Translations under genes and position numbers: made by a program | The notes under the pieces: generated by a model | Database searches by the model: none | Seen by the model: only the letters and a program-made list of their open reading frames with translations | What the model was told of the DNA's origin: nothing | In this document: piece after piece, positions 1 through 49,165 of the stretch | Numbering within the stretch: the stretch's first letter is position 1 | Layout of the letters: each line of letters begins with the position of its first letter | Assembly (NCBI GenBank): GCA_036803685.1 | Contig: DAIRTX010000011.1 | Location: 303-64,302 of the forward strand | DNA length: 64,000 nucleotides | From: Verrucomicrobiota bacterium | GTDB taxonomy: Bacteria; Verrucomicrobiota; Verrucomicrobiia; Limisphaerales; UBA11358 | Direction of reading: 5' to 3'

Positions 1-366
1 GGCGAGGAGGACGGGCGCGGGCTTGTCCACATACATCGTGTGCAAGCTGTGATGAGGGCGCATCTCAAATTGAGATGCGCCCGCCAGGCTGGGGCGCAGC
101 TTGACACCACCACCACCAAGGTAGGGCGGCGCTGCCGCGCCGCCCAAACTTCCACCAGAACGAGCGGAGCGATGTTCTTGCGTGCGCATTCCCATGGTTC
201 CGCCGGCATCGCTGCGCTGGCTGGCGGTGAGATTGGGGCAAACCGGCAGGTTTGCCCTGCCATTTGCGTGGGAGTGTCAAGCTGCGCCCGCCAGCCTGTT
301 TTGTTTATAATTAATATTTGTGTTCCAGGGAAATGGGCATAAATTTATTTTTCATACCAGGACCAG

Positions 367-4500: not shown

Positions 4501-7500
4501 GTGGTGGTGACGAAGTCCACCGAGGAGGTGCCGTTGGTGGTTCCCAAACGAATGACATCAATCGGCGCAAAACCAGTCAAAATATTTTTGCTGACCGAAT
4601 AATTTGCGGCTGAAAAACTCACGGCGCTGTCATCATTAATGATGGTCAGCACGGCTGTGGGTTGAAGTCCCATCCCCGCCGGCGGCGTTGGATTTGAAAT
4701 CGCCAGATTCACCGTCAAGTCGGGGGTAACAACTCCATCGTCCATCACCGGAACGGCCACCGTTTCCAGAACCTCGCCCGGCGGGAAATTGACTGTGGTG
4801 GCAACCGCAGTGTAATTCGTGCCCGCCACCGCCGAGCCACCGCTCGTCGTGGCAAAGTTGACGGAAATATTACCCGAGCCATCGGAATTGGGACCGCTGG
4901 TGCCGCCCGTGCGCCGGATTGTGACAAGGGCTTGTCCGCCCTTTTCGTCAACTTGATACCCGGCCGAGGTGAATTGCAGCAAGCCGGAACCTATCACCGA
5001 ACCGCCGTAAATCCGGGCAATATGCGCATGGGGTTGATCATCGTATTGGGTAAAGCCGCCGCCAATGACCAACATTTGATACGCGGGCTGAATGAGGAGC
5101 GCGTCAATGGCACCGTTCGCGCCGTCGCCGAAATTGATCGTCGCATCCACTGCGCCGTTCGGCAGCAACCGGGTGATGCGATTACGGGTGACACCATTGG
5201 CCCGGGTAAACTGGCCGACCAGCACGATCCGATTATCGGCCTGCACCGCAATGGCTTGCACGGAGCCATTGGCGCCGACGCCCACGTTGGTCGTGAAATT
5301 GGCATCCAACGAACCGTCGCTGTTCAAACGGGCAATACGGTTCAGGGCGGTCCCATTGACATTGGTGAAGTCGCCGCCAATGAGGATGCGGCCGTCACTT
5401 TGAATGGCAATGGCGCGAACGGTGTCATTGGCCCCCAAATTCAAGTCGAAGTTGGTGTCCACGGAACCGTCGCCATTCAATCGCGCGACATGGCCCAGGG
5501 CAAAACCATTGATGTTGGTGAACGCGCCGCCGACCAGCAATTTGCCCGCGAACGGCGAGTTGGCGGGATAAACGGCAATGGCATAGACCGCGCCGTTGGG
5601 GCCGGAACCGGTGGCAAAAGACGAGTCCAGCGAGCCGCCGGCAGAATTCGTACTGCCACCATTGAGGCGGGCAAGGTTGGGGCTGGCGCCGCCGCTGATG
5701 GTGTTGAACGCGCCGCCAACGTAAATTTCCCTCGCGCCATTAACGAAGGTTTCGGCCAGCGCGTAAACCGGAGCACTCGCTCCACCCGGGGGACTAAAGC
5801 TGGTGTCCAAGGAACCGTCGGTCATCAGGCGGGCGATGCGATTACGGGCAGTGCCATCAACGTTGTTGAACGCGCCGCCGATAATCACGCGCCCATCCGT
5901 TTGACAGACCACGGCCTGCACGGCGCCGCCGGTGGCGCCGGAATAAAGACCGTTGTTGAGGAAGCCGGCACTGTCCAGCGAGCCATCGGCGTTCAGCCGG
6001 GCGATGCCACTATCGGGGGCGCCATTGACATTGGTGAAGTTGCCACCGGCGAGGATTTGTCCGTTGGGTTGCAACGCGAGCGCCAGCACGTCGCCGTTCA
6101 TGACCGGAGTAAAGGAGCCGTCCAGCGAACCGGGCGGCCAGGTGTAAGTTTCGGCATCCAAAATGTTGACGACGGCATTGCTCGGCGAACCCAACATCGC
6201 GTTGACCGCATTGGTCAAACTCACATTGAAATTGAACGCATTGGTGCCTTCCGGCGCACCGATGTTGGTAATCGTCACGTTGAAGCTGGCAGCAGTTTGG
6301 TTGGCGGCAAAGTTAAGCACGTTGTTGGTGCCAACATAATTAATGCCGTTCGTAGCTTTGGGCCCGTTGCTGGTGTAATATCTGACAGAGACCGGGGCGG
6401 CGATGCCGCCCGTGCGAAGGACGGTGATGGTGACATAGCCGCCGTCTTCGCGGACGACATAACTGGGCGCGCTGAACTGGAACACACCGTAGCTGTTGTC
6501 GTTGGTGATCGTCAGCGTGGCATTGGTGATGGAATTGTTGGGCGGCGTGCCGACATAGAACAGCGCCGGCTGGTACGTGCCATTCTGCGTGGGATTGAAC
6601 AAGTAAACCCGAAATTGTTTAATGGGACCAACGACGCCGGTGTTTGTGAGCGCGATAGAGACGGTGCGCGACGAAGCGTCACCGCTGTTCCAATTCAGGA
6701 TGTTCGTCGCGCCGAAGTAATCCAGTCTGTTGGTTGCCGATGGGCCATCGGTGGTGGCGTATTGGACAGTAAGGGTGCCGGCGCAGCCGGCGACGCGATT
6801 GATGACGAAGGTGATGAAGCCGGCGCTTTCACTGCCGATGTAATTGTTGGCGCTGAGGGTCAAATAACCCCGGAAATTGGGGTTGATGAGGCGGAGCACC
6901 GCGTTGGATATTCCAATCGTCGCATTGCCATCAACGGGTGCGCTGAGGGGGGGGTTCAAGTGGAGAAAGACGGTCTTTTCCACAAACTCCGTGGAACTCA
7001 AGCCGTTGAGTATATTTGTAACCGTGAAGAAATTGCTGACATTGTTCGCTGAGATTGAGACAAGCTTGTTGGTGAGGCCTATGTAGTCTATGCCCACAAT
7101 GGCCGTTCCGTTGGTGGCGAAAGCACGCATGGACACCGGGCCGTAAACGCCATTGCTCCGAACCACTTCGATGGAAGTGATGATATTGGTTGCCACATAA
7201 AGGGAAGAGAAAAATCCGAACGTGCCGGAATTTTTCGAGTCATCAATCAGCGCGAACGGCGTCGCGGACACCCCCAGTGCGGCGCCGAGCGGAATGTTCT
7301 GGCCGCCGAGATAAAATTCATCGGCCCCGCTCGGGTTGGCCAGTTGGAACTGGGCATTGAGGTCGCCCAACATCGAGGGGTTTTTGCTGATGCTGAGCGT
7401 GACGAACGAATTGCTGCTAATTAACGAGTCCGTCTGAGACAAAGGGGCGAAGACATCCCGTAGCGAGCCATTGCCTCCAAACAGGCCATCACTGCGCAAG

Positions 7501-38070: not shown

Positions 38071-39819
38071 TCAGGAACCGCGCAGAAAGATTTTGAACAC
38101 AATCGCGATGTCCCCCGGTTGGTTCTTCGGTTGCCGGATGACGAGCGCGTCGTCGGTTTGCGTCCACTTGAGTTTTTCACTGCAATCATGCTGCATCAGC
38201 AGCGTGGCGAGATGTTCGACTGGCTGCCGCGATTTTTTTTGCCCGCCGTCGAGCAATTCAATTTTGCGGATGGGATTGTCGAGCAGCCCGGCGGATTTGC
38301 CGAGCGACTTGATGCTCACGCCGTTCGTCGGCCAGCCCAGCACAATGGCGTAAAGCGTATTGCCTTTGCTCGTGAAACGGACATCTTGGGCGGTGAACGG
38401 CTTGCCTTTCCCTTCGTTGAATCCCTGCGCGCTCAACGCCGCACCGCCGGAAGCCGGACCTTCGCCAAACACTTTCCACGGACGTGTGCCGAAGATGCTC
38501 TCCCGGTTCATGTCCATCCACGCCGCGATGCCTTCCACCACCTTGATTTCCTTGTCATCAATCGTGCCGTCGCCGCGCACGGGAACGTTAAGCAACAAAT
38601 TGCCGTTTTTGCTGACAATGTCGGCCAGCGTTTGAATGACCGTTTTCGCACTCTTGTAGCCGTTGCGGTTGTAGAGGCCGCGGTCGTAATGCCAGTTGCC
38701 CAGACAGGTGTCGGTCTGCCACGGCTGCGGTTCGATTTTATTGGCCTGGCCGCGTTCGATGTCCCACACCATGCACTGGCGTTGCTGCTCGTTTAGGATT
38801 TTGCCGAACAGCACGCCGTCGTCCTGTTCGCCGTGCCACTTGATGTTACTGTTGTAAAAATGCGCGGCAATCTTCAACCCCGCGTCGCTGATGGGCCACA
38901 ACGGCAGCGCCGTGTCGTCAAAATAAATCAAATCCGGGTGGTATTTATTGATGAGGTCAACCGTGCGGTTGTAAAACTTGTCGCAGTAGGCCTGGTCGGG
39001 AAGGCTCGCACCGTTGCCCCAATTCCACTGGGAATGAATGGCCCGCGGGTTGGTGCTGTCCCGGCTCCGCGCATGGTTTTGTGCGTAGAGGTCCTGGGGA
39101 TCGAGACCGTCCCACCATTGGCCTTGGCCGTCGGCCTTGGTGAGCTTGCCGTCATAATCCTGCGCCGGCTCATACCAAGTCCAGGCATGCGCGGCATGCA
39201 CACTGACGCCGAAGCGCAATCCATTTTTCCGCGCCGCCCTGGCCCAGCCGCCAATCAAATCCTTTTTCGGCCCGACGTTGACCGAGTTCCACGGCTGATA
39301 CCGGCTGTTCCAGTTGTCAAAGTTGTCATGATGGTTGGCCAGCGCGAAGAAGTATTGCGCCCCGGCGCGTTTGTAGAGCGCCATGAGCTTTTCCGGGTCC
39401 CAGTTCTCCGCCTTCCATTTATGAATCACATCCTTGAAACCGAACTGTGCGGGTGAACCATAGTGGTTCGTGTGAAATTTATACTGCCCGGCGCCAGTCT
39501 GATACATGCCGCGCGCATACCAGTCGCCGTCCTCCGGCTCGCACTGCGGCCCCCAGTGCGCCCAGATGCCGAACTTCGCGTCCCGAAACCATTCCGGGCA
39601 TTGATATTGTTTTAATGACTCCCAGGTCGGTTGAAAGATGCCGGTCTGCACCGGCTCGGCAGCGGTGTTGACCATAACCGGCGCGGGGTTGGTTTCTTCG
39701 GCAACGACGGCGGCCGTCAGGGTCAAAACCGCAACCCCGACCAGGCTGGCCTTCCGGAATGGGGCGGACGGAATGAGGATTCTTATGAAAGAATAGGGTC
39801 GTTTATTTTTGTAGCACAT
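38071..39819 (-). CDS. Alpha-L-fucosidase (GH29)
   Basis: Motif PTWESLKQYQCPEWFRDAKFGIWAHWGPQ plus GH29-like length. ORF track starts at TTG 39825; ATG 39819 is preferred. Confidence 0.85.
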   Translation of the reverse strand: MCYKNKRPYSFIRILIPSAPFRKASLVGVAVLTLTAAVVAEETNPAPVMVNTAAEPVQTGIFQPTWESLKQYQCPEWFRDAKFGIWAHWGPQCEPEDGDWYARGMYQTGAGQYKFHTNHYGSPAQFGFKDVIHKWKAENWDPEKLMALYKRAGAQYFFALANHHDNFDNWNSRYQPWNSVNVGPKKDLIGGWARAARKNGLRFGVSVHAAHAWTWYEPAQDYDGKLTKADGQGQWWDGLDPQDLYAQNHARSRDSTNPRAIHSQWNWGNGASLPDQAYCDKFYNRTVDLINKYHPDLIYFDDTALPLWPISDAGLKIAAHFYNSNIKWHGEQDDGVLFGKILNEQQRQCMVWDIERGQANKIEPQPWQTDTCLGNWHYDRGLYNRNGYKSAKTVIQTLADIVSKNGNLLLNVPVRGDGTIDDKEIKVVEGIAAWMDMNRESIFGTRPWKVFGEGPASGGAALSAQGFNEGKGKPFTAQDVRFTSKGNTLYAIVLGWPTNGVSIKSLGKSAGLLDNPIRKIELLDGGQKKSRQPVEHLATLLMQHDCSEKLKWTQTDDALVIRQPKNQPGDIAIVFKIFLRGS

Positions 39820-39935
39820 GGGCAATCCAATTCAATCTTTCACATTCCTTTGCCGGATTCAGGCTTGCGCGTCAAGGGCGGTCACCTGAAGCCGCAGGAA
39901 CTGTGCGCGGCCATTTCGCAGGTCAACGTGTCAGA

Positions 39936-41312
39936 CTACACCGCGCAGGGCGCGAGAATCGCGTCGGCCATGCCGTGAACAATTTTTTTGTCGGCGGGAA
40001 CGATGGTTGCCAGCACACCGCCGAGTTGCGGGCGCGCCGCGTCGCCCTCGCCGGACACAAAATAATACGGACACAGCCGCGCCCGGCCTTTCATCGGCAC
40101 AACTTCATTCTTCGCGAAGTCAAACCACTGCGTCTCGACCAGCGCGGGTTTGTGATAACGCTGGAGAACGCGCGGCGACTGCTCGAAATGTTGAATGGCA
40201 TCATCCACCGCCTTTGCCCAATCTTCGTGCGACAAATCACTGCCGAGAAAAACCCCGCGCGCGCCCCAGGCATGAGCCGAGAAGCCCGACACTTTCAAAA
40301 TCAGATCGCGCTCTTTCTGCGACAGGGTTTTGAGTTGCTGCCAGTCCGTGAGATTCAATTCGGGAATCGCCGCCTGTGGCGGCAATGGCGTCGGGTCAAC
40401 GATCCACGTGTAAGGAACCAGCTTTTTCAGCCGCGCAAAAAAGTTCTCGCCGAGTTCCTGCCGCCAGAAGTTTTGCAAATTGCGATTCCACAAAAGCGCG
40501 AAGAGCATTTTTTCCTCGAACACCGGCTTCGGCGGCGGCGTGAGGCGAATCCGCTTCCCGGCAGCGAGATCGAAAATTTTCTTTGAATTCGCCACATTCG
40601 GCAAATCGAACAATTCAAAAAACCGGTAAATCGCGTTGCCATCGGCGAAATCGTTGAAACGTGAATCGTGAACCGTGAATCGTGGGCCGAGCTGTTCGCA
40701 CAACCAACTCATCTCCGGCCGATACGTCGCCGCTTCCTCGGACACGATAATGTGAACCGTTTTGGCGTCGCCGAAGATGGATTCAAACCCGCGCAACATG
40801 CCGTCCGCACCGCCGATCAACGTGCTGCCAGCATCTTGCTGGCAGTTCCGTTCTGCATTCGAGATTTGCCGGCAAGATGCCGGCAACACGCTGCTGTACG
40901 TCTGGTTGAGCCAGCCTGTCAGCCCGATGCCGCCGGGGACGGAATCCAATTCTGTGATACTGATCCCCTGCTCTGTGAGCAGCAAATCGGGGCGAATAAC
41001 GCGCGGCACGTCGTTTTTGAGCGCAGGCGAACGCTGGAGCGCAATGAGTTCCGCCGGTTTGCCGAGGTCGAGCCAGCGGGCAATCCATTCCGGCTGTTTG
41101 CCCTCGGCGCTTTTGCGGTAAAGCAAATTGACCGCCCGGTAAAACTGCAGCAGCACGCGGCCGAGCGATTCGATTTCCTTTGCCAGGTTTTCACCGATCG
41201 GAAACGGCGTTGGGGAAATGCGCCAGTCGAGTCCGGCAAAGAGTCCGCCAGCTGGAATTTGATCGCGGATAAAACGGGCGCGCTCGACTAAAGAAATGTT
41301 TTGGGCAAGCAC
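39936..41312 (-). CDS. ATP-grasp-like protein (glutathionylspermidine-synthase / circularly permuted ATP-grasp-like), function unknown
   Basis: 458 aa with GTG start. VIRPDLLLTEQGISITELDSVPGGIGLTGWL resembles the pre-ATP-grasp segment of that superfamily. Weak family call. Confidence 0.55.
   Translation of the reverse strand: MLAQNISLVERARFIRDQIPAGGLFAGLDWRISPTPFPIGENLAKEIESLGRVLLQFYRAVNLLYRKSAEGKQPEWIARWLDLGKPAELIALQRSPALKNDVPRVIRPDLLLTEQGISITELDSVPGGIGLTGWLNQTYSSVLPASCRQISNAERNCQQDAGSTLIGGADGMLRGFESIFGDAKTVHIIVSEEAATYRPEMSWLCEQLGPRFTVHDSRFNDFADGNAIYRFFELFDLPNVANSKKIFDLAAGKRIRLTPPPKPVFEEKMLFALLWNRNLQNFWRQELGENFFARLKKLVPYTWIVDPTPLPPQAAIPELNLTDWQQLKTLSQKERDLILKVSGFSAHAWGARGVFLGSDLSHEDWAKAVDDAIQHFEQSPRVLQRYHKPALVETQWFDFAKNEVVPMKGRARLCPYYFVSGEGDAARPQLGGVLATIVPADKKIVHGMADAILAPCAV
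40825..40886. repeat. Twin-hairpin repeat embedded in frame in the ATP-grasp-like gene
   Basis: CTGCCAGCA-tct-TGCTGGCAG and TTGCCGGCA-aga-TGCCGGCAA. Encodes ...LPASCRQISNAERNCQQDAGST... Confidence 0.8.
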
Positions 41313-41328
41313 AACGACAGTATTAAAA

Positions 41329-41847
41329 TCAGTGAGTCTTGGCAGTTTCCTTTTCGATCATGGCAATGAGCTTCTTGAATTCAGGCTCGCTGTAACCTAT
41401 TGATTGAAAAACAATGCTGCCATCAGCATTGATCAGAAAATTGCGTGGAATGTATTTTGTCGCGAATTCAGAATACACACTACGCTTTGGGTCGCAGGCA
41501 ATCGGAAATCCAAGCTGGTATTTCTTCTGGCAATCTTTGACAACCTGCTCGGTTTCTTCACGGTCAATCGCGACCATTAGAAAATTTTTATCCTTAAACC
41601 TATTCCATATTTCGCCCTGTAAATGTGGCATTTCAGCCATGCACGGCCCGCACCATGCCGCGAAAAAATTAACCAACACAACTTTGCCTTTGGCGTCCTT
41701 CAAATCAAAGTTTTTCCCATCAAGAGTCGTAATGTGGATTGGCGGTGCGGCTTGTCCGACTTTGGTCAAAGTCGTTCCTTCCATGTCCGGCTGTGCGAGC
41801 ATTGAAAGTGAGGCAAACCAGCAGGATAAACATAATAGTTTTTTCAT
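41329..41847 (-). CDS. TlpA/ResA-like thiol:disulfide oxidoreductase (thioredoxin fold)
   Basis: VVLVNFFAAWCGPCMAEMPHL. Start moved to ATG 41847 (MKKLLCLSCWFASLSMLA signal peptide). Confidence 0.8.
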   Translation of the reverse strand: MKKLLCLSCWFASLSMLAQPDMEGTTLTKVGQAAPPIHITTLDGKNFDLKDAKGKVVLVNFFAAWCGPCMAEMPHLQGEIWNRFKDKNFLMVAIDREETEQVVKDCQKKYQLGFPIACDPKRSVYSEFATKYIPRNFLINADGSIVFQSIGYSEPEFKKLIAMIEKETAKTH

Positions 41848-41924
41848 ATTTTTAGATTCCAACCTGTCCGTTCCCGATGCCAATCCACTTGTAATACCAA
41901 TTCCCAGAGACAATCGGTGCAATG

Positions 41925-42018
41925 GGTAGGGCGGCGCTGCTGCGCCGCCGGGTATGATGGCCGCGCAGCAGCACGGCCCTACCGTCTGGAATAGGTGCCG
42001 ATTATTATCGGAAAATGG
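41925..42018. repeat. 94-bp palindromic dispersed repeat, copy 2 (inverted relative to 811..904)
   Basis: Reverse complement matches 811..904 at 91/94 positions. Confidence 0.85.
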
Positions 42019-42058
42019 TATAACTGGTCAATTCGTTTAGCCCCATTAGGCGGCGCGT

Positions 42059-42550
42059 TCATTTCTTGATTCGCTTTTTGTTCAGCGTCTGTTTGCTTTG
42101 CAGCGTGCGGAGCGTGTTTTGCAAAACAGGAATGACGAGCCGGTCTTTGGGACGGTTCGCGGCTTGCTTGCTGGCCAGGATGCGTTCCAACGACAGCACC
42201 TTGAGTTGTAGTTTGCCGACTTTGATTTCCAGGGAGTGTTTCCATTCGTCGGCAAACTTCCCCAACCCGTCCATGCGAATGACCACGTCAAAAGGGTCGC
42301 TGCCCGGACCGCCGAGCATGGGCGGGTTGATGCCGAACGGTGGAATGTAGGCTGCGCCCACTTTGACCAGGGCTTGCGACAATTTCGGGTTGCTCAAATC
42401 GTCAAACCAGAGGTCAATGTCCTCGGTGACGACGGGCGCGCCTTGCAGCGCGGCGGCGGAAAGTCCCACCACCATAAAACGGATTTTATGGCGGAGTAGC
42501 GACTCCAACAGCCGGAGTTCAGCTTCTGAAAGCGGTAAAACCTCGGCCAC
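42059..42550 (-). CDS. Nucleotidyltransferase-fold protein (MNT/AbiEii-like)
   Basis: 163 aa. FMVVGLSAAALQGAPVVTEDIDLWFDD is a GS...D.D-type motif. Family call is tentative. Confidence 0.5.
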   Translation of the reverse strand: MAEVLPLSEAELRLLESLLRHKIRFMVVGLSAAALQGAPVVTEDIDLWFDDLSNPKLSQALVKVGAAYIPPFGINPPMLGGPGSDPFDVVIRMDGLGKFADEWKHSLEIKVGKLQLKVLSLERILASKQAANRPKDRLVIPVLQNTLRTLQSKQTLNKKRIKK

Positions 42551-42734
42551 GGCGCAAACTCCGGTTCAGCCGCACCAACGGCGGCGATTGCAGTGAGATC
42601 AACGTGAGACGCACATCCTCCGGGTCGGCCTCGGGATGGCGCGACATCACGACGGCGACATCGCCGGCCAGTTTTTTAGCCCAGCGATGCGACGCGGCGG
42701 CGGATAAACGCGTTGAAGATGCCCTTCGTCTCAT
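42519..42734 (-). CDS. Possible small partner ORF upstream of the nucleotidyltransferase
   Basis: Listed 71-aa ORF overlapping the downstream start by 32 nt. No motif recognised. True start may be ATG 42644 (MSRHPEADPEDV...). Confidence 0.2.
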   Translation of the reverse strand: MRRRASSTRLSAAASHRWAKKLAGDVAVVMSRHPEADPEDVRLTLISLQSPPLVRLNRSLRRGRGFTAFRS

Positions 42735-42823: not shown

Positions 42824-45172
42824 TTATGGCGAATTTAAGCGGCCGCGGTAAAACATTTTTGCCGTGTTGGTCGTGGCGACAAGAAAACTGAATGAATTGC
42901 TGGAGAGCGCGTTGGTGCTGACGGCCACCCAGTGAACCAGGTCGGTGCCGGATTGGAGCACGTAGCTCTGTCCGGCCTGGCCGTTGAGCCAGAGTTCCAA
43001 CTGACCGGGCGGACGGTTGGTTCCGATTCGCAGATGGAAGGCGGTTGCGCCGGGGAGAACAAAAAGCGTGATGCTTTGTGCCGGCAACACCTGGCTCAAA
43101 ACTCCATTCGTCAACCCGGTGTTGGACAAATGGCTGATGGTGTTGGCGGAAGTGAGTTGCCACACCTGCGCCGGCCCGGTGGCGGTGAAGTTGGTGATGT
43201 TCAGCGTTATCGGCGTCGCATTGTTGAGGTCTTTGTTGATGGCCATGATGGTCATCGCGCCGTCGCCGGTCCGTACCGCGGCAAAAGCGGCGACGTTGTC
43301 CGGATTGGGCACGGCCGCCTGGATGCTGGTGTCGCCGAACGTGGATTTGTTGCCGTCGTAATTACGATACAGCTTCATGGCCTTGTAAGTGGGCGTGTTG
43401 GTGGCGGGCGTCGTCCAGCGCGTAGCCAGATCCAGTCCTTCCCGGCCAAAAATGCCAAGAATATCGGCCTGAGCCGTCGCACCATTGATGGACGGTTCGG
43501 CTCCCCAGTTATATTCGGTAATACCGATCTTTGTGCCGGGATAATTGGTCGTCACCCAACTCCGCATCCGGGGAATAAGCGCGATAACGCTGTTGATCCA
43601 GCTCGGATCCACGTAATTGGTGTCCCAGAACTGGCGGGTTGATTGGTTCCGCAACAGCGCAGTCGTGGAGTCAGCCGCATCGGTGCCCACGTTATTTTCC
43701 TGCGGGTAGCAATGAAGGGTAAAAACATCCAGCAACCGCTTGCCGGCCGCCTGACTGCGCAGGTTAACCTGGCTCAAAAACCACGGCCCAAAATCCTGTC
43801 CGCCATGTGCCATGCGGTCGGGATAATGCGCCGGGTTGTAATCGTTGTGCGCGCCAGACCATTGTTGATCGTAGCCGCTGTAAAAATAGCCCGGCCAGCT
43901 CCATTCTTCCGGGCCGGCGACCAGCGCATTCGGGTCAATGCCTTTCACCATCGTCGCGTATTTGCAATAATTGGTAAACACCTCATCCATGGTCGGGCCC
44001 ACGGGATGCACGTCGCGATGCGTCGACTGCCAGAGACTCCACTCGTTGTCCATGATGTAATAAAGCAATCCGCCATTGGTCGCGGAGTGCCACGTGTTCG
44101 TCAGATGTTGCACCCAACCGGCCTGAAAGTTTGTGTCTGCGGGCAGGTTCGCATCAGTTGGATCGTTGGTGGTGATGTTCAAGCCGGTGGCCAGTGAAAC
44201 GCCGTTGCCCGCCGCCGGGAACCACGGATCAGTGCCCGTTTGCGGACCATATTTGTTGGTATTGTAACTCGCCAGAATGGCGCGACCCGGCCCCAATTTG
44301 GCCACCCAGCCGATGATGGGAATGGTCAGCATCGCCTGCGCCCCGCCATTTTTGGAGGTGGTAATGAAATCATCGCCGTCGCCGCCGGCGGCGCTGCTGC
44401 TTTCGGCGATGCTTTCAAAATACCAGTCGGCTGCATGGTTCCAGGCGTTATTCTGCCAGTTGTAAGTGGTTGTCCCGTTGCCGCCGGAACGATGGAGCGG
44501 CGCGTTCAAATCCAGAAGCTGGCTGCTGCTGGCGAAGGCCACGCCGTATATCAACGGGTTGATCGCGTGACGGTTGGCCTGCGCATCAACCGAGATGGAA
44601 ACCGGCGCGTTGGTGCCGCTAGTGACAACATTGGCGACCAGCGAAATGTCGTCCACGTAAAAGGTCGGCTCCGCGGTGCCCTGCGAGTCCTGGATGACGA
44701 AGCCGGTGAAGTTGGCCACGCTGGCCACGTTCAGCGCGGAGAGTGGAACAGTAAACTGTTGCCAGGTGCCGGCTACCAGGGGGCCAATGTAGTAACGCGG
44801 GCTGGTGGCAAAGTTGTTGGTGCCCCCGACATCAATCAAACCATAGACCTGTAGTTTTTGTCCACCGCTGGAACCGCCATGGAGCCAGAAGCTGAGGCTG
44901 GCGTAAGGCGTGGAATCCAAGTCGGGATGCCAGATTTGAATTCCCTGCCACGCGCCGGAAATCGTGACGCTGATGGAATCGCTGCCGGCATGGACGGGGG
45001 AAGTGTTGAGGTAGTTGATGGTTGCCCACCCCCAATCCGCCCAGCCGTTTTGCCGCGCGTCGTCGTAAATGATCTGGTCGGCACGCGCCGTCAATTGAAA
45101 CATGAATGCCAATGCCAACAGCCGGCATGACCATTTGCCTCCGGCACGGCACTTCAAAGCAGGATTTCGCAT
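42824..45172 (-). CDS. GH44-like glycoside hydrolase with N-terminal CBM-like domain and C-terminal FYR module
   Basis: INPLIYGV...RSGGNGTTTYNWQNNAWNHAADWYFES resembles the GH44 GGN..T.YNW.NN motif. ATG 45172 is preferred over TTG 45184. Ends ...AKMFYRGRLNSP. Confidence 0.65.
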   Translation of the reverse strand: MRNPALKCRAGGKWSCRLLALAFMFQLTARADQIIYDDARQNGWADWGWATINYLNTSPVHAGSDSISVTISGAWQGIQIWHPDLDSTPYASLSFWLHGGSSGGQKLQVYGLIDVGGTNNFATSPRYYIGPLVAGTWQQFTVPLSALNVASVANFTGFVIQDSQGTAEPTFYVDDISLVANVVTSGTNAPVSISVDAQANRHAINPLIYGVAFASSSQLLDLNAPLHRSGGNGTTTYNWQNNAWNHAADWYFESIAESSSAAGGDGDDFITTSKNGGAQAMLTIPIIGWVAKLGPGRAILASYNTNKYGPQTGTDPWFPAAGNGVSLATGLNITTNDPTDANLPADTNFQAGWVQHLTNTWHSATNGGLLYYIMDNEWSLWQSTHRDVHPVGPTMDEVFTNYCKYATMVKGIDPNALVAGPEEWSWPGYFYSGYDQQWSGAHNDYNPAHYPDRMAHGGQDFGPWFLSQVNLRSQAAGKRLLDVFTLHCYPQENNVGTDAADSTTALLRNQSTRQFWDTNYVDPSWINSVIALIPRMRSWVTTNYPGTKIGITEYNWGAEPSINGATAQADILGIFGREGLDLATRWTTPATNTPTYKAMKLYRNYDGNKSTFGDTSIQAAVPNPDNVAAFAAVRTGDGAMTIMAINKDLNNATPITLNITNFTATGPAQVWQLTSANTISHLSNTGLTNGVLSQVLPAQSITLFVLPGATAFHLRIGTNRPPGQLELWLNGQAGQSYVLQSGTDLVHWVAVSTNALSSNSFSFLVATTNTAKMFYRGRLNSP

Positions 45173-45231
45173 AGGCAGCTTCAAAAAAATACATCAGAAA
45201 TCGTGCCGGCGCATTCTTTTGCGTGTCATCA

Positions 45232-45357
45232 TTAAAGGGGACGCCCGTTCGTTCGTGCAGCTGGAGCCAACCCGGAGTGAAAATCATCAAGCCCGGCGAA
45301 CAATCCACCGGGCGGGAGCGTATCGCGGATGAATGTTGCTGCTTGTTGAGGTGACAT
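45232..45357 (-). pseudogene. 5'-end fragment F1 homologous to the start of gene 39936..41312
   Basis: Reads MSPQQAATFIRDTLPPGGLFAGLDDFHSGLAPAARTNGRPL* versus the intact MLAQNISLVERARFIRDQIPAGGLFAGLDWRISP. Confidence 0.7.
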
Positions 45358-45364
45358 GAAGAAA

Positions 45365-45451
45365 TTACAAGCCCAAGCGTTCCGCCAGCCAGTCGAGAAC
45401 CAAATCCATTTCCGCGCTCGTGAGTTCGCCGAGTTTGCGCTCCAGTTTCAC
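45365..45451 (-). pseudogene. C-terminal remnant of a MazF/PemK-like toxin
   Basis: 28 codons, VKLERKLGELTSAEMDLVLDWLAERLGL*. Looks like the last helix of MazF-family toxins. Begins at a GTG overlapping the antitoxin stop. Confidence 0.35.
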
Positions 45452-45624
45452 GCTGGCAACCGTTCCACTTCCTGTTTGTCCATGTCGCGGAACATCGCGT
45501 CGGCGGACTCGTGGAGGAACTGCGCCTCGTCCCGCTCGTCCAGTTCGCGCAGGCGGCGGCGGACGGCGGAACGCTCTTCGTCCGTCAGCTTGGGCAGTTC
45601 GGCAAGGATTTCAACCGCACTCAT
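45448..45624 (-). CDS. Addiction-module antitoxin-like small protein (58 aa)
   Basis: MSAVEILAELPKLTDEERSAVRRRLRELDERDEAQFLHESADAMFRDMDKQEVERLPA. Below the ORF-track length cut-off; translated by hand. Confidence 0.55.
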   Translation of the reverse strand: MSAVEILAELPKLTDEERSAVRRRLRELDERDEAQFLHESADAMFRDMDKQEVERLPA

Positions 45625-45633
45625 GGAATAAAA

Positions 45634-45744
45634 CTAACGCTGACGCACTGGACTGGCAAGCGGGGTTTTGATGCTCCACTCCTGACCGGCGAACAAGCCG
45701 CCCGGCGGCAGCGCATCGCGGATGAATTTTGCCGTTTCGGTCAA
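45634..45744 (-). pseudogene. 5'-end fragment F2 homologous to the start of gene 39936..41312
   Basis: Reads (TTG)TETAKFIRDALPPGGLFAGQEWSIKTPLASPVRQR*. Starts inside the relE stop region. Confidence 0.7.
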
Positions 45745-46025
45745 TACACTTCTTCGTGTGAGCCAATGTTGACGAGCAGCAGGATTTCCGCCCCGGTTTT
45801 CGAATTTTTCTGTTTGGAAAAAACAATCCGGCAATCGTAGGCTGCCGAACACGCGTGCAACCCGGCAAGCTGGCCGCTCAAATGATGGGTTTTCAAACGC
45901 GGATCAGCCAGGTCTTCAGACATCCGCCGCAAGATTTGTTCGATTCGCGGCTGCAACCCCGGCGTTTTGCGAACGAGACGGCGGAAAGCGCGCTCAAACT
46001 TGGGCGTGAGAACCAGTTCGCGCAT
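45741..46025 (-). CDS. relE: RelE/YafQ-family mRNA interferase toxin
   Basis: 94 aa. LKTHHLSGQLAGLHACSAAYDCRIVF...LLLVNIGSHEEVY is typical of the family. Confidence 0.8.
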   Translation of the reverse strand: MRELVLTPKFERAFRRLVRKTPGLQPRIEQILRRMSEDLADPRLKTHHLSGQLAGLHACSAAYDCRIVFSKQKNSKTGAEILLLVNIGSHEEVY

Positions 46026-46028
46026 GGC

Positions 46029-46247
46029 TCACTTGGCGGCGCGAAGATGGGCGATGACGTTCTCGGCGGACTGCGGCTTGAGTTTCCCGGCGCGGAGCGC
46101 CTTGGCCGACTGCGCGGCATCCGCCGCCGTTTCCGCGCGCCAGCTTTCGATGCGGCGGCGGCGCAATAATTCCTCCAGCATTGCCTGTTCCTCGGCAGGC
46201 AGGGCTTCAGCGCTGGTCAGCACGCGATCCAAGGTCAATGCACTCAT
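46029..46247 (-). CDS. Antitoxin partner of the RelE-like toxin
   Basis: 72-aa ORF ending 3 nt before the toxin start. Helical, charged composition. Confidence 0.6.
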   Translation of the reverse strand: MSALTLDRVLTSAEALPAEEQAMLEELLRRRRIESWRAETAADAAQSAKALRAGKLKPQSAENVIAHLRAAK

Positions 46248-46268
46248 GTGGCAAAGTTAACGCCACAA

Positions 46269-46382
46269 TCACACGCTGGCAAGCGGGGTTTTGATGCGCC
46301 ATTATTGTCCGGCGAAAAGTCCACCGGCGGGAATCTGATCGCGGACAAAACGGGCAACGGTTTCAGGATTTGTTGGAGCCAC
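46269..46382 (-). pseudogene. 5'-end fragment F3 homologous to the start of gene 39936..41312 (internal TAA)
   Basis: Reads (GTG)APTNPETVARFVRDQIPAGGLFAGQ*WRIKTPLASV*. Confidence 0.7.
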
Positions 46383-46391
46383 AAGTGAAAA

Positions 46392-47636
46392 TCAATTTTT
46401 CGTCTTTGTAATTTCAAGAACTTCAAGCGTCCGGTTGGTTGAAGTCAGTTCCAAACCTAATTGTTCCCGAACTGCTTTGATAACTTTGTCGGAGTCTGGA
46501 TTTGAATCGGAGTTTAATTCCGATTTTGACATCTGCCATCTGACATCCACCGACCAACGACCGGCCAGGCCCGTTTCGTTGACGATTGGTTTATCAAGGG
46601 AAAGTTCCATGAAAGAAGCGATGTCATCCATTTTAGTCCCGTTGAGATAAAATCCGCCGGGTCTTTGGCCGCCACCGCCCCTGCGCTGAACTTGTTTGAT
46701 CCCGGGAGCATTGGTCGAACAAACAGTCATGACATAAACTTTCACGTTTTGTTTTTTCGTTTGAACTTCAATGCCGAAATTCGTTTCGAGTTTTTTGGCG
46801 AATTGTTGTTTCAATTCCAGCGTTTCCCCTTGGGGCGCAATGGCGGAAATATCATAAAATCCCTCGGGCAATTTGGTTTTTGCGAAAACCAGTTTCGGGC
46901 TGATGTCGAAAAATGCCGGAATGACATCTTCCAAAGATGCTTTCCCGGCTTCAAAATCAGGAAAAGATTCCGACCTGCCCCAGCTGCGAGAATCAAATGG
47001 GCCTCTCTCAGGCTTTGGAAATGGACCTTTGATCGAAATTTCAACCTTCGTTGGAGCCGGATTGGTAACGGCAACGACATCTCTGTCGTCCGGCGAATAC
47101 AATTGTGGTGCCGGCAAGCTGCATGGTTTTCCCGCCAATATTTCTTCCAAGTTTTTTGCTTCAAGTACAGCTGGATGAGTTATGGCGGCGATTTTTCCCG
47201 ACGCATCCACGATTACAGTGTGAGGAATGCCATGCACATCAAAAGCCGTTCTGGTTGGATTCAAAAGTCCGTCCAAAACCACCCAGCTCTTGATCGGTTT
47301 CCGTTTCAGATATTTTTTAAGATAATCCCCGTTGTCGTCTGAAATCGAAATGAAAACCACCCGGTTGCTAAATTGCCCGACCAAATCATTCAGATGCGGA
47401 ATGGCTTCAATGCACGGCGCGCAAGCCGTGTTCCAAAATTCCAGCACCACCACTTTGCCCTTGAGCTTGTCCCAGCTGATTTCATTTGGCGACGGCCCTT
47501 GAACTGTTTCGCTCAAAATTAGCGGCGGCGGAACATCTCCGATTTTGGAACCATTTTCCCCCGCCAGCGCAAAAGAATCATTTTGGAAACATCCGAAAAC
47601 AAATGACACAATGATAATTTTTTGAAGAAATTTCAT
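46392..47636 (-). CDS. TlpA-like thioredoxin domain fused to a TIGR03435-like (soil-associated) C-terminal domain
   Basis: 414 aa with a signal peptide. VVVLEFWNTACAPCIEAIPHL. C-terminus NETGLAGRWSVDVRW...AVREQLGLELTSTNRTLEVLEI. Confidence 0.7.
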   Translation of the reverse strand: MKFLQKIIIVSFVFGCFQNDSFALAGENGSKIGDVPPPLILSETVQGPSPNEISWDKLKGKVVVLEFWNTACAPCIEAIPHLNDLVGQFSNRVVFISISDDNGDYLKKYLKRKPIKSWVVLDGLLNPTRTAFDVHGIPHTVIVDASGKIAAITHPAVLEAKNLEEILAGKPCSLPAPQLYSPDDRDVVAVTNPAPTKVEISIKGPFPKPERGPFDSRSWGRSESFPDFEAGKASLEDVIPAFFDISPKLVFAKTKLPEGFYDISAIAPQGETLELKQQFAKKLETNFGIEVQTKKQNVKVYVMTVCSTNAPGIKQVQRRGGGGQRPGGFYLNGTKMDDIASFMELSLDKPIVNETGLAGRWSVDVRWQMSKSELNSDSNPDSDKVIKAVREQLGLELTSTNRTLEVLEITKTKN

Positions 47637-47639
47637 GCG

Positions 47640-48935
47640 TCAGGTCCGCACCTGGCCGGTGCCGATGCCAAGCCACTTGTAGCTCGTCAATTCCTCCAGG
47701 CCCATCGGGCCGCGGGCGCCGATTTTGTCGGTGCTGATGCCGATTTCCGCGCCCATCCCGAATTCGCCGCCGTCGGTAAAGCGCGTCGAGGCGTTCCAAT
47801 AAACCGCCGCGGAATCCACTTCGGCCAGGAATTGCTTCGCGTGCGCCTCGTTCTTCGTGACAATGCTGTCCGAATGCGCCGAGCCATATTGATTGATGTG
47901 GTCAATCGCCGCTTTCACGCCATCCACAACGCGGACGTTCAGGATGTAATCGTTGTATTCGGTGTAAAAATCCTGTTCGGTCGCCCGCCGGATTTCGGAT
48001 TTCGTCCCGCCCTGCGGGAGGATTTCGGATTTCAAAATTGCCTCGGCAGCCGGGTCAACGCGCAGTTGCACATGCTTTTCGCCAAGTTGCTGGCCGATGA
48101 TCGGCAGAAAGGTTTTGGCGATTTTGCCGTCCACCAGCAGCGTTTCCATGGCGTTGCACACGGCGGGACGCTGGACTTTCGCATTCATCGCGATTTCCCC
48201 GGCCATTTTCAAGTCCGCGTCGGCGTCCACATAGACGTGGCAGACGCCCTTGTAATGTTTGATGACCGGCACCTTGGAGCATTCGGCCACGGCGCGAATG
48301 AGGCCTTCGCCGCCGCGGGGCATGCACAGGTCAATGTATTGCGTGAGCGACAGCAAAATGGGAATCGCCTCACGATCGGCCACGGGTACGACCTGAATCG
48401 CGTGCCCGGGAAATTTCGCGAGCGCCTGTTTCCCCGCCTCAATCATGATTCGTGCGATGGCCTGGTTCGAATCCAGTGCCTCCCGGCCGCCGCGCAAAAT
48501 CACCGCGTTGCCGGATTTGAAGCACAGACTCGCCGCATCCGCCGTCACGTTGGGACGCGATTCGTAAATGATGACCACCACGCCAATGGGCGTGGAAATT
48601 TTTTGGAGCTTCAAGCCGTTGGGCCGGACGCGTTCGTCCAGGATTCTTCCAACCGGATCCGCCAGCGCCGCCACTTCGCGCAAACCTTTCGCCATCGCAG
48701 CGATGCGTTGGTCGTCGAGCTTGAGGCGGTCGAGCATGGCCGATGAGAGGCCGGACTTCGCGGCGGCGTCCATGTCGGGCGCGTTGGCCTGTTTGATAGC
48801 GTCGGCGTTTTTTTCGAGCGCAGCCGCCATCGCGAGCAAACACGAATTTTTCTCCGCCGTCGTGAGTTGGGCGAGTTCGCGCGACGCCAGCCTGGCCTGT
48901 CTGGCCAGTCGCGTCATCTGCTCATTCAAAGTCAT
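47640..48935 (-). CDS. proA: Gamma-glutamyl phosphate reductase
   Basis: IGVVVIIYESRPNVTADAASLCFKSGNAVILRGG and full-length ProA pattern. Start moved to ATG 48935 (MTLNEQMTRLA). Confidence 0.9.
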   Translation of the reverse strand: MTLNEQMTRLARQARLASRELAQLTTAEKNSCLLAMAAALEKNADAIKQANAPDMDAAAKSGLSSAMLDRLKLDDQRIAAMAKGLREVAALADPVGRILDERVRPNGLKLQKISTPIGVVVIIYESRPNVTADAASLCFKSGNAVILRGGREALDSNQAIARIMIEAGKQALAKFPGHAIQVVPVADREAIPILLSLTQYIDLCMPRGGEGLIRAVAECSKVPVIKHYKGVCHVYVDADADLKMAGEIAMNAKVQRPAVCNAMETLLVDGKIAKTFLPIIGQQLGEKHVQLRVDPAAEAILKSEILPQGGTKSEIRRATEQDFYTEYNDYILNVRVVDGVKAAIDHINQYGSAHSDSIVTKNEAHAKQFLAEVDSAAVYWNASTRFTDGGEFGMGAEIGISTDKIGARGPMGLEELTSYKWLGIGTGQVRT

Positions 48936-49165
48936 GTGGCAAGAAGGTAAGCCAAAAAGCCAAAGTGAAAAGTGCGAAGTTTCCAGCGTTCTTCGCAACC
49001 CATGGTCGTTCTTCCTTCACAAATGGTCCGACAGACAAGTCGGATTGATTCTGCAATTATTGCTAAGTTGTTCCCAAAAAATGGGGAGCACATTTCGGCC
49101 TGGGCGTGGATTGTCATAACATGATTGCTGGCAGTCAATTAGCGGAACGCCACGTTGAACAAACG

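Follow-up and report, generated by a model that had tools for sequence, protein, structure and literature searches.

In the 64,000-nt stretch of Verrucomicrobiota DNA analysed here (contig DAIRTX010000011.1, hereafter the window), the conserved genes proA and X are separated by an array of gene cassettes, which are delimited by three fragments of the 5' end of X itself. Each of these fragments (F1, F2, and F3), together with its flank, matches a junction that is still live in a relative. Therefore, X formerly began at these fragments, which were later displaced, and the gene now has a replacement start. The array was probably built by additive recombination anchored in the flanking genes at a proA-X hotspot, in a process resembling homology-facilitated illegitimate recombination.

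Displaced 5' ends of gene X

A degenerate motif covering the peptide FIRD..P.GGLFAG of X, TTYRTCCGCGAT-N4-T-N-CC-N-GC-N-GG-N-GG-N2-T-N-TTYGCCGG, occurs four times in the window, always on the minus strand: once in intact X (41233-41273), and at 45293-45333, 45686-45726, and 46309-46349. It had no match in 100 shuffles. The three additional copies were also matched by a DNA profile of 71 orthologous X 5' ends, with the E-values given in Table 1. These results confirm the three same-strand partial copies of the X 5' end that the initial annotation had reported. The homologous segment of X is 41184-41285, and the X protein begins with MLAQNISLVERARFIRDQIPAGGLFAGLDWRISP. The gene order proposed earlier is also correct, as judged from open reading frame (ORF) calls, Pfam and NCBIfam hits, and the loci of relatives. 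The array reads TlpA_TIGR - F3 - AT3/RelE - F2 - AT2/MazF' - F1 - GH44/NTase - proA' - TlpA_s - X, where AT2 and AT3 are genes in antitoxin positions, NTase is a nucleotidyltransferase-like gene, and primes denote remnants. Because the same array is present in independent metagenome assemblies (L098, L094, and L102; relatives are cited by locus number), an assembly artefact is ruled out.

F3 and its flank are collinear with the intact TlpA_TIGR-to-X junction in L002 (80/92 nt) and L001 (79/92 nt). Intact X directly follows the TlpA_TIGR gene in L001, L002, L005, and L017, and L001, which has this junction without any fragment, represents the empty site that the initial annotation had suggested looking for in relatives. 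The gene natively located upstream of the ancestral X start is TlpA_TIGR. F2 and its flank are collinear with the intact RelE-to-X junction of L084 (75/90 nt; 85% identity over 218 nt). Similarly, F1 and its flank are collinear with the intact MazF-to-X junction of L094, L097, L099, and L100 (approximately 80/91 nt), and F1 bears the exact MSPQQAATFIRD start found in L060. By these alignments, F3 is the native X start in the lineage of the window, and F2 and F1 are starts that were brought by the RelE and MazF cassettes, respectively, and then displaced in turn. The present X 5' end arrived jointly with proA' and TlpA_s; the arrangement proA-TlpA_s-X occurs in L039 (68% identical). The conservation at the protein level with divergence at synonymous sites, which had been noted earlier, is explained by the origin of the fragments from different orthologous X alleles and is not evidence of selection on them.

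It is highly improbable that the fragments are functional, be it as small ORFs, leader peptides, silent cassettes varying the X N-terminus, or regulators of toxin-antitoxin (TA) operons. F1 retains an ATG and a 41-codon ORF, and the core peptide FIRD..P.GGLFAG is kept in all three fragments, but in all orthologs this stretch is simply where X is most conserved. Rather than being the independent functional small genes considered in the initial annotation, the fragments are in decay. A stop lies in frame within F3, the copies in L084 (TVVHFIRVQIPVCALFAGQ), L016 (FIRNLLPPDGLFPG), and L094 (AIAIRDPLPPGGLFAG) are degraded or frameshifted, and F1 has been lost altogether in L005. An extra X 5' copy is absent from 78 of the first 80 related genomes.

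The break points of the fragments vary. In profile coordinates, X fragments end at approximately 86-90, where they are joined to the upstream region of the GH44 gene, at 99, where they are joined to a conserved TA leader, or at 209, where they are joined to other cargo (L096). Within the window, F3 ends after the codons for WRI, and F1 ends about three codons earlier than F2 and F3. A single crossover core fixed in all repeats, as envisaged initially, was not observed; only the class ending at position 99 is constant, and the stretches that are invariant in the four copies are only the coding-constrained ones (TCCGCGAT and GCCGG). In L096, a longer, frameshifted X 5' fragment (7017-7215, about 70 codons) lies behind a full AT2-MazF pair and is followed by an antisense 192-aa ORF and then intact X. 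This fragment is an independent displacement with a different break point.

The locus is also mosaic. The window and L098 (Ga0097691_1004102) are approximately 100% identical from 50821 to about 44800, a segment of about 6 kb on the proA side. The identity drops abruptly within GH44 to 90% (44821-44622) and then to 66-86%, with a breakpoint near 44650-44820, and X is only about 74% identical. L016 is approximately 97% identical to the window over F3-AT3-RelE and 80% identical in X.

The proA-X gap in relatives and its cargo

We compared approximately 100 related loci, namely 80 genome loci retrieved through X, 5 contigs of close homologs, and 15 metagenome loci retrieved through the TA leader. 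In many genomes, X lies only 10-110 nt downstream of proA. Other gaps contain GH44; GH44 with the nucleotidyltransferase and TlpA_TIGR; TlpA_TIGR alone; small TlpA alone; or AT2-MazF. Unrelated cargo was also found, including defence genes (a TIR protein, GmrSD, and Uma2) as well as an HSDR_N protein, a polyvalent-protein kinase, an IS1595 transposase, and RCC1-repeat and membrane proteins. Because the two genes abut in the simplest genomes and enclose varied cargo in others, the gap is a gene-content hotspot in Limisphaerales.

Several loci represent intermediate states of the array. L001 has the order GH44-NTase-proA'-TlpA_TIGR-X, with no fragment. L084 has the same arrangement plus one cassette, F3-AT3-RelE-X. 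L098, L094, and L102 share the F3-TA1-F2-TA2-F1-GH44 arrangement of the window. L016 and L101 lack cassette 2 and have one hybrid fragment, the left part of which corresponds to F2 and the right part to F1; their RelE genes are frameshifted. The hybrid is most simply explained by a deletion between F2 and F1. The array of L094 (Ga0209540_10001365) exceeds that of the window in length and includes three proA remnants and a second AT2 cassette. Its first part reads proA'-TlpA_TIGR-F3-AT3-RelE-F2-AT2-MazF'-F1-GH44-proA', and the remainder consists of 72-aa and 110-aa ORFs, proA', a 190-aa ORF with no family hit, and leader-AT2-MazF'-X. Both of its MazF genes are truncated.

Remnants of the other anchor gene mirror those of X. 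Pieces of the proA 3' end lie downstream of cargo in L001, L002, L004, L007, L083, L084, L094, L096, L099, and the window, and their start points vary between positions 4 and 22 of a 39-residue profile. In the window, both pieces of the remnant were matched by the ProA C-terminal profile and were also detected as repeats. The initial annotation had placed a repeat upstream of the small TlpA gene. This repeat is a REP-like palindrome inserted in the proA 3' remnant, which had been overlooked. The GC-rich palindrome (GGTAGGGCGGCGCTGCTGCGCCGCC and its complement) occurs at two further places in the window (120-144 and 846-904). The copy in the remnant sits in an insert of about 125 nt, and its segment folds with a z-score of -9.

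The short proA-X spacers of eight relatives with an empty gap (L003, L010, L023, L029, L037, L043, L059, and L063) contain long hairpin-forming repeats of two types, CAGCCACAGAT...GTGTTTCATCTGTG and GTAGCAGCCGACGT...CGGCTGCTAC, which suggests small palindromic elements at the proA-X site.

Table 1. Features of the proA-X region of the window, from proA to X.
Feature	Coordinates	Strand	Description
proA	47640..48998	minus	gamma-glutamyl phosphate reductase; left anchor gene of hotspot
TlpA_TIGR	46392..47636	minus	TlpA-like thioredoxin fused to TIGR03435/DUF3738 domain; Pfam and NCBIfam hits
F3	46293..46377	minus	displaced native X 5' end; nhmmer profile positions 15-99, E 4.7e-11
TA leader copy 1	46248..46293	minus	CAAAACCCCGCTTGCCAG-N12-GCGTTAAC...; possible promoter or operator
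AT3	46029..46247	minus	antitoxin-position gene, 72 aa, no family hit
RelE	45741..46025	minus	RelE/YafQ-like toxin, 94 aa, intact
F2	45670..45743	minus	displaced X 5' end, formerly right behind RelE; nhmmer profile positions 26-99, E 2.6e-12
TA leader copy 2	45625..45670	minus	conserved; F2 cassette
AT2	45448..45624	minus	antitoxin-position gene, 58 aa
MazF'	45362..45460	minus	MazF/PemK toxin remnant; only C-terminal ~33 codons left
F1	45286..45363	minus	displaced X 5' end, formerly right behind MazF; nhmmer profile positions 13-90, E 3.3e-9
GH44	42824..45184	minus	glycoside hydrolase cargo gene; Pfam PF12891, E 7e-66
Small ORF and NTase	42059..42734	minus	small ORF 42519-42734 (71 aa) and nucleotidyltransferase-like gene 42059-42550 (163 aa)
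proA'	41861..42055	minus	proA 3' end remnant in two pieces, 42020-42055 and 41861-41893
REP-like palindrome	41925-41983		splits proA remnant
TlpA_s	41329..41922	minus	small TlpA-like thioredoxin; Pfam AhpC-TSA/Redoxin
X	39936..41312	minus	458 aa, conserved, function unassigned; right anchor gene of hotspot

The first cassette contains AT3 and RelE, which are also paired in L084, L094, L098, and L102. The RelE protein of the window scored just under the cutoffs of YafQ_toxin (29.9 bits, cutoff 30) and TIGR02385 (25.6 bits, cutoff 27.9), and PF15738 is a precomputed hit of its L084 ortholog. The order of the two genes and their 4-nt spacing are compatible with a type II TA module. In the second cassette, AT2 is the partner of a full PemK/MazF toxin in L072, L096, L097, and L100. 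The MazF remnant reported in the initial annotation is real: 45362-45460 matches residues 73-105 of the L072 toxin in a tblastn search, and this toxin is full-length (105 aa; PF02452 24.3 bits, cutoff 23.1). No intact PemK-fold toxin was found in cassette 2 of the window, and because only the last 33 or so codons remain, MazF is inactivated there. The AT2 and AT3 proteins could not be aligned with each other. The two cassettes have in common only the leader and the first three antitoxin codons; both antitoxin genes open with ATGAGTGC.

Among the other cargo, a region of about 90 nt upstream of GH44 (about 45185-45260) is conserved in eight contexts. The nucleotidyltransferase shows a weak resemblance to DUF2204 that is under the cutoff (E 0.0013). 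The 71-aa ORF overlaps the start of this gene, and the pair is also found behind GH44 in L001, L004, L017, L083, and L084. Since the two genes travel together behind GH44, they may form a further two-gene module for addiction or defence. On the left side of the gap, the proA ortholog of L086 has a precomputed Aldedh Pfam hit.

X is intact in the window. It has at least 8000 homologs; among the matches listed, the top 120 share 81-94% identity with it (94% for the closest), and those with names belong to Limisphaerales/Verrucomicrobiota metagenome-assembled genomes. Searches of Pfam, NCBIfam, and the PDB, even at E ≤ 10, gave no match to X, and an AlphaFold model from a shallow alignment of 12 sequences was unusable (pLDDT 42.8). 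The label "ATP-grasp-like" given to X in the initial annotation is thus unconfirmed. Just downstream of X, 38071-39825 corresponds to an alpha-L-fucosidase by the Pfam annotation of the L083 and L084 orthologs. Among the checked loci, a fucosidase lies beside X only in L083, L084, L045, and, distantly, L075, whereas a CCA-adding/PolyA_pol gene directly follows X in L001-L007. Because these neighbours differ, the gene content downstream of X is also variable.

Possible routes to the array

The observations agree in three respects with sequential displacement. Same-strand gene-end fragments lie beside a conserved anchor, and for each there is a matching allele that is still intact in other genomes. 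The junction positions vary, and the gaps and arrays examined contained no dedicated mobility gene. Homologous exchange between diverged lineages is evident in the drop of L098 identity within GH44 and in the mosaic identity of L016. Also in line with this reading, all loci retrieved through the TA leader alone in which the flank is long enough have X, or a fragment of it, immediately after the TA pair. In the pathway that we propose from these comparisons, cargo would enter as chromosomal DNA of relatives carrying a different occupant of the gap. One crossover would be homologous and located in one of the conserved anchors, either X at the right or proA at the left. The second join would either be illegitimate or rely on a short resident fragment for homology. 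Where that second join lies within the anchor gene of the recipient, the old gene end would be cut off and stranded as a dead fragment, while the donor copy would restore the gene; repetition of such displacements would give the present order of the array. A cassette that has come to lie between a fragment and X, to its left and right respectively, could then be spread, duplicated, or deleted by ordinary homologous recombination. An active TA pair might penalise recombinants that replace the resident cassette, and additive outcomes would then be enriched. After the toxin has decayed, as in MazF' of the window or the frameshifted RelE of L016 and L101, deletion would become possible.

Several points weigh against this pathway. 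The homology arms on the left, at about 60-85 nt and 65-85% identity, are short and diverged, and such arms are poor substrates for classical homologous recombination. The L016 and L101 loci are compatible with either an insertion or a deletion between two fragments. The junctions of the TA cassettes are also strikingly regular. The leader, whose consensus can also be written CAAAACCCCGCTTGCCAG-N12-GCGTTA, is common to both cassettes and to 15 metagenome loci. Its conservation begins sharply at CAAAAC in 12 unrelated upstream contexts (L070, L072, L081, and L088-L102 were examined), and the fragments F2 and F3 and those of L005 and L089 end at the identical nucleotide, abutting the same leader. 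Random illegitimate joins would not predict a constant fragment end together with a sharp leader start. This regularity can be explained if one ancestral junction was propagated by homologous recombination, if a promoter edge was under selection, or by both.

The same regularity speaks for the model in the initial annotation, in which decayed integrative or integron-like cassettes inserted at a fixed site in the X 5' end; the recombinase would be encoded elsewhere or lost, and the attP of each element would include the replacement X start. As expected of site-specific elements, every insert lies between direct repeats of the end of the target gene, and X is restored every time. Within otherwise 97.6% identical DNA, F2 of L094 and F2 of the window differ just left of the junction (GLDWRI and GQEWSI), which could reflect independent insertions at one point. 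The TA family was found only beside X. However, the gap and array ORFs that were scanned with Pfam or covered by the precomputed annotations of L083-L087 yielded no tyrosine or serine recombinase, and the IS1595 transposase in L007 is unrelated to the junctions. As for an integron, no integrase was found, and the repeats are X coding fragments rather than attC-type imperfect palindromes, although attC folding was not separately checked. The X fragments that end at 86-90 (the F1 type) and at 209 do not fit a fixed site. The supposedly element-borne ends are ordinary chromosomal junctions elsewhere, one of them being a proA 3' piece joined to TlpA_s. In addition, the gap contains proA 3' remnants whose boundaries vary, and these call for a separate explanation in any case; an enzyme specific for the X start could not have made them. 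We therefore regard site-specific integration as unlikely. Thus, what stands of the initial interpretation is the displacement of X 5' ends by insertions that each brought a replacement start, which the live junctions support; integrase-borne elements with a common core are not supported.

A dedicated mechanism confined to the TA cassettes is likewise unlikely. Three other origins of the leader were rejected. It is not a continuation of the X coding sequence, as the profile alignment stops at position 99, nor the native X promoter, as simple proA-X spacers lack it. An IS200/IS605-type insertion was rejected as the cause of its sharp left end, as the bases before CAAAAC show no common target. 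The leader may be a promoter of the TA genes; a consensus promoter scan did not list it. The cassettes may be integrase-free, homology-armed selfish cassettes, or else the site may be targeted by an unrecognised trans-acting recombinase, both of which we consider doubtful. If the former were true, the left end of the cassette would be CAAAACCCCGCTTGCCAG... and its right arm the first 33 or so codons of X. The cassette would home into the X start in any genome and restore the gene, and arrays would grow because addiction blocks its replacement.

In a further alternative, which we judge quite unlikely, the array began as a tandem duplication. X codon ~30 would have been joined illegitimately to sequence downstream of proA, duplicating the intergenic unit; the copies would later have been filled with different cargo by allelic homologous recombination, and unequal crossing-over would have resized the array. 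The TA leader lies just 30-45 nt or so past the proA stop in L070 and L072, and a short similarity (TAATGGC...CAAAAC) is present near the F3 junction. The hybrids of L016 and L101 look as if F2 and F1 had undergone unequal crossing-over or a deletion between them, and mosaicism by homologous recombination is demonstrated at the locus. However, the three fragments come from three X alleles, each with a different native upstream neighbour, and import together with cargo fits this better. The differing end points would require several independent duplications. This alternative largely overlaps with the preferred explanation, additive recombination anchored in the flanking genes, and involves the same enzymes.

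Relation to known systems

Earlier work proposed homology-facilitated illegitimate recombination for the effector-immunity arrays of Vibrio cholerae's type VI secretion system (T6SS) and for orphans of Rhs and contact-dependent growth inhibition (CDI) systems (Kirchberger et al. 2017, PMC5361080). Rhs "C-terminal displacement" and CdiA-CT/CdiI orphans are sequential displacement arrays (Jackson et al. 2009, as cited in PMC5361080). Like the window, these arrays have a conserved anchor gene that is restored by modules of relatives, with no integrase. Old gene tips and partner genes are pushed into a same-strand array, which later spreads by ordinary homologous recombination. A protective partner is kept by selection, this being the immunity gene in Rhs/CDI/T6SS arrays and, as we propose, the antitoxin in the window. 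There are also clear differences. The displaced piece is the 5' (N-terminal) end in the window and the 3' end in Rhs/CDI/T6SS arrays. The anchor is a conserved gene of unassigned function beside proA rather than a toxin, and the cargo is self-contained (TA pairs, a glycosidase, and thioredoxins), whereas in the other arrays it consists of alternative tips of the anchor protein. Unlike those arrays, the window has a second anchor, the proA 3' end, with mirror-image remnants.

Homology-facilitated illegitimate recombination itself has been described in natural transformation (de Vries & Wackernagel 2002, Prudhomme et al. 2002, and Meier & Wackernagel 2003, as cited in PMC5361080) and during conjugation (PMC3240628). 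It shares with the window one homologous anchor and one illegitimate join, foreign DNA beside the anchor, and variable junctions. The published work used laboratory strains and selectable markers, whereas the process in the window is deduced from comparative genomics of uncultured Verrucomicrobiota. Unlike in the laboratory, several junctions of the window were re-used rather than newly made.

The minimal mobile elements and core-gene-flanked integration hotspots of Neisseria (PMC3787668, PMC1797815) resemble the window in having alternative cassettes between two conserved genes, homologous recombination in the flanks, and no dedicated mobility genes. In those systems, one cassette is described as replacing another, whereas the window is additive, with partial duplicates of both flanking genes left behind. 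Repeated target-gene-end fragments also delimit successive inserts in the tandem ssrA islands of Dehalococcoides (PMC3146451) and in accretions of integrative and conjugative or mobilizable elements, including integrase-less cis-mobilizable elements (PMC5704250), and some of these inserts lack their own recombinase. However, their repeats are short att cores at one fixed position, and at least some units include a cognate recombinase. In the window, the break points vary, the replacement ends correspond to ordinary chromosomal junctions, and the gap and array ORFs scanned gave no recombinase.

The locus would extend sequential displacement beyond polymorphic-toxin loci, to an uncultured phylum and to an ordinary conserved gene that is affected at its 5' end. 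A single gap holds remnants of both flanking genes, and intermediate states in relatives record the steps. For annotation, it is a caution that short ORFs resembling the start of a neighbouring gene can be recombination scars. The gap provides a testable case of how core-gene hotspots acquire cargo without mobility genes, and of whether TA addiction biases recombination towards adding rather than replacing DNA.

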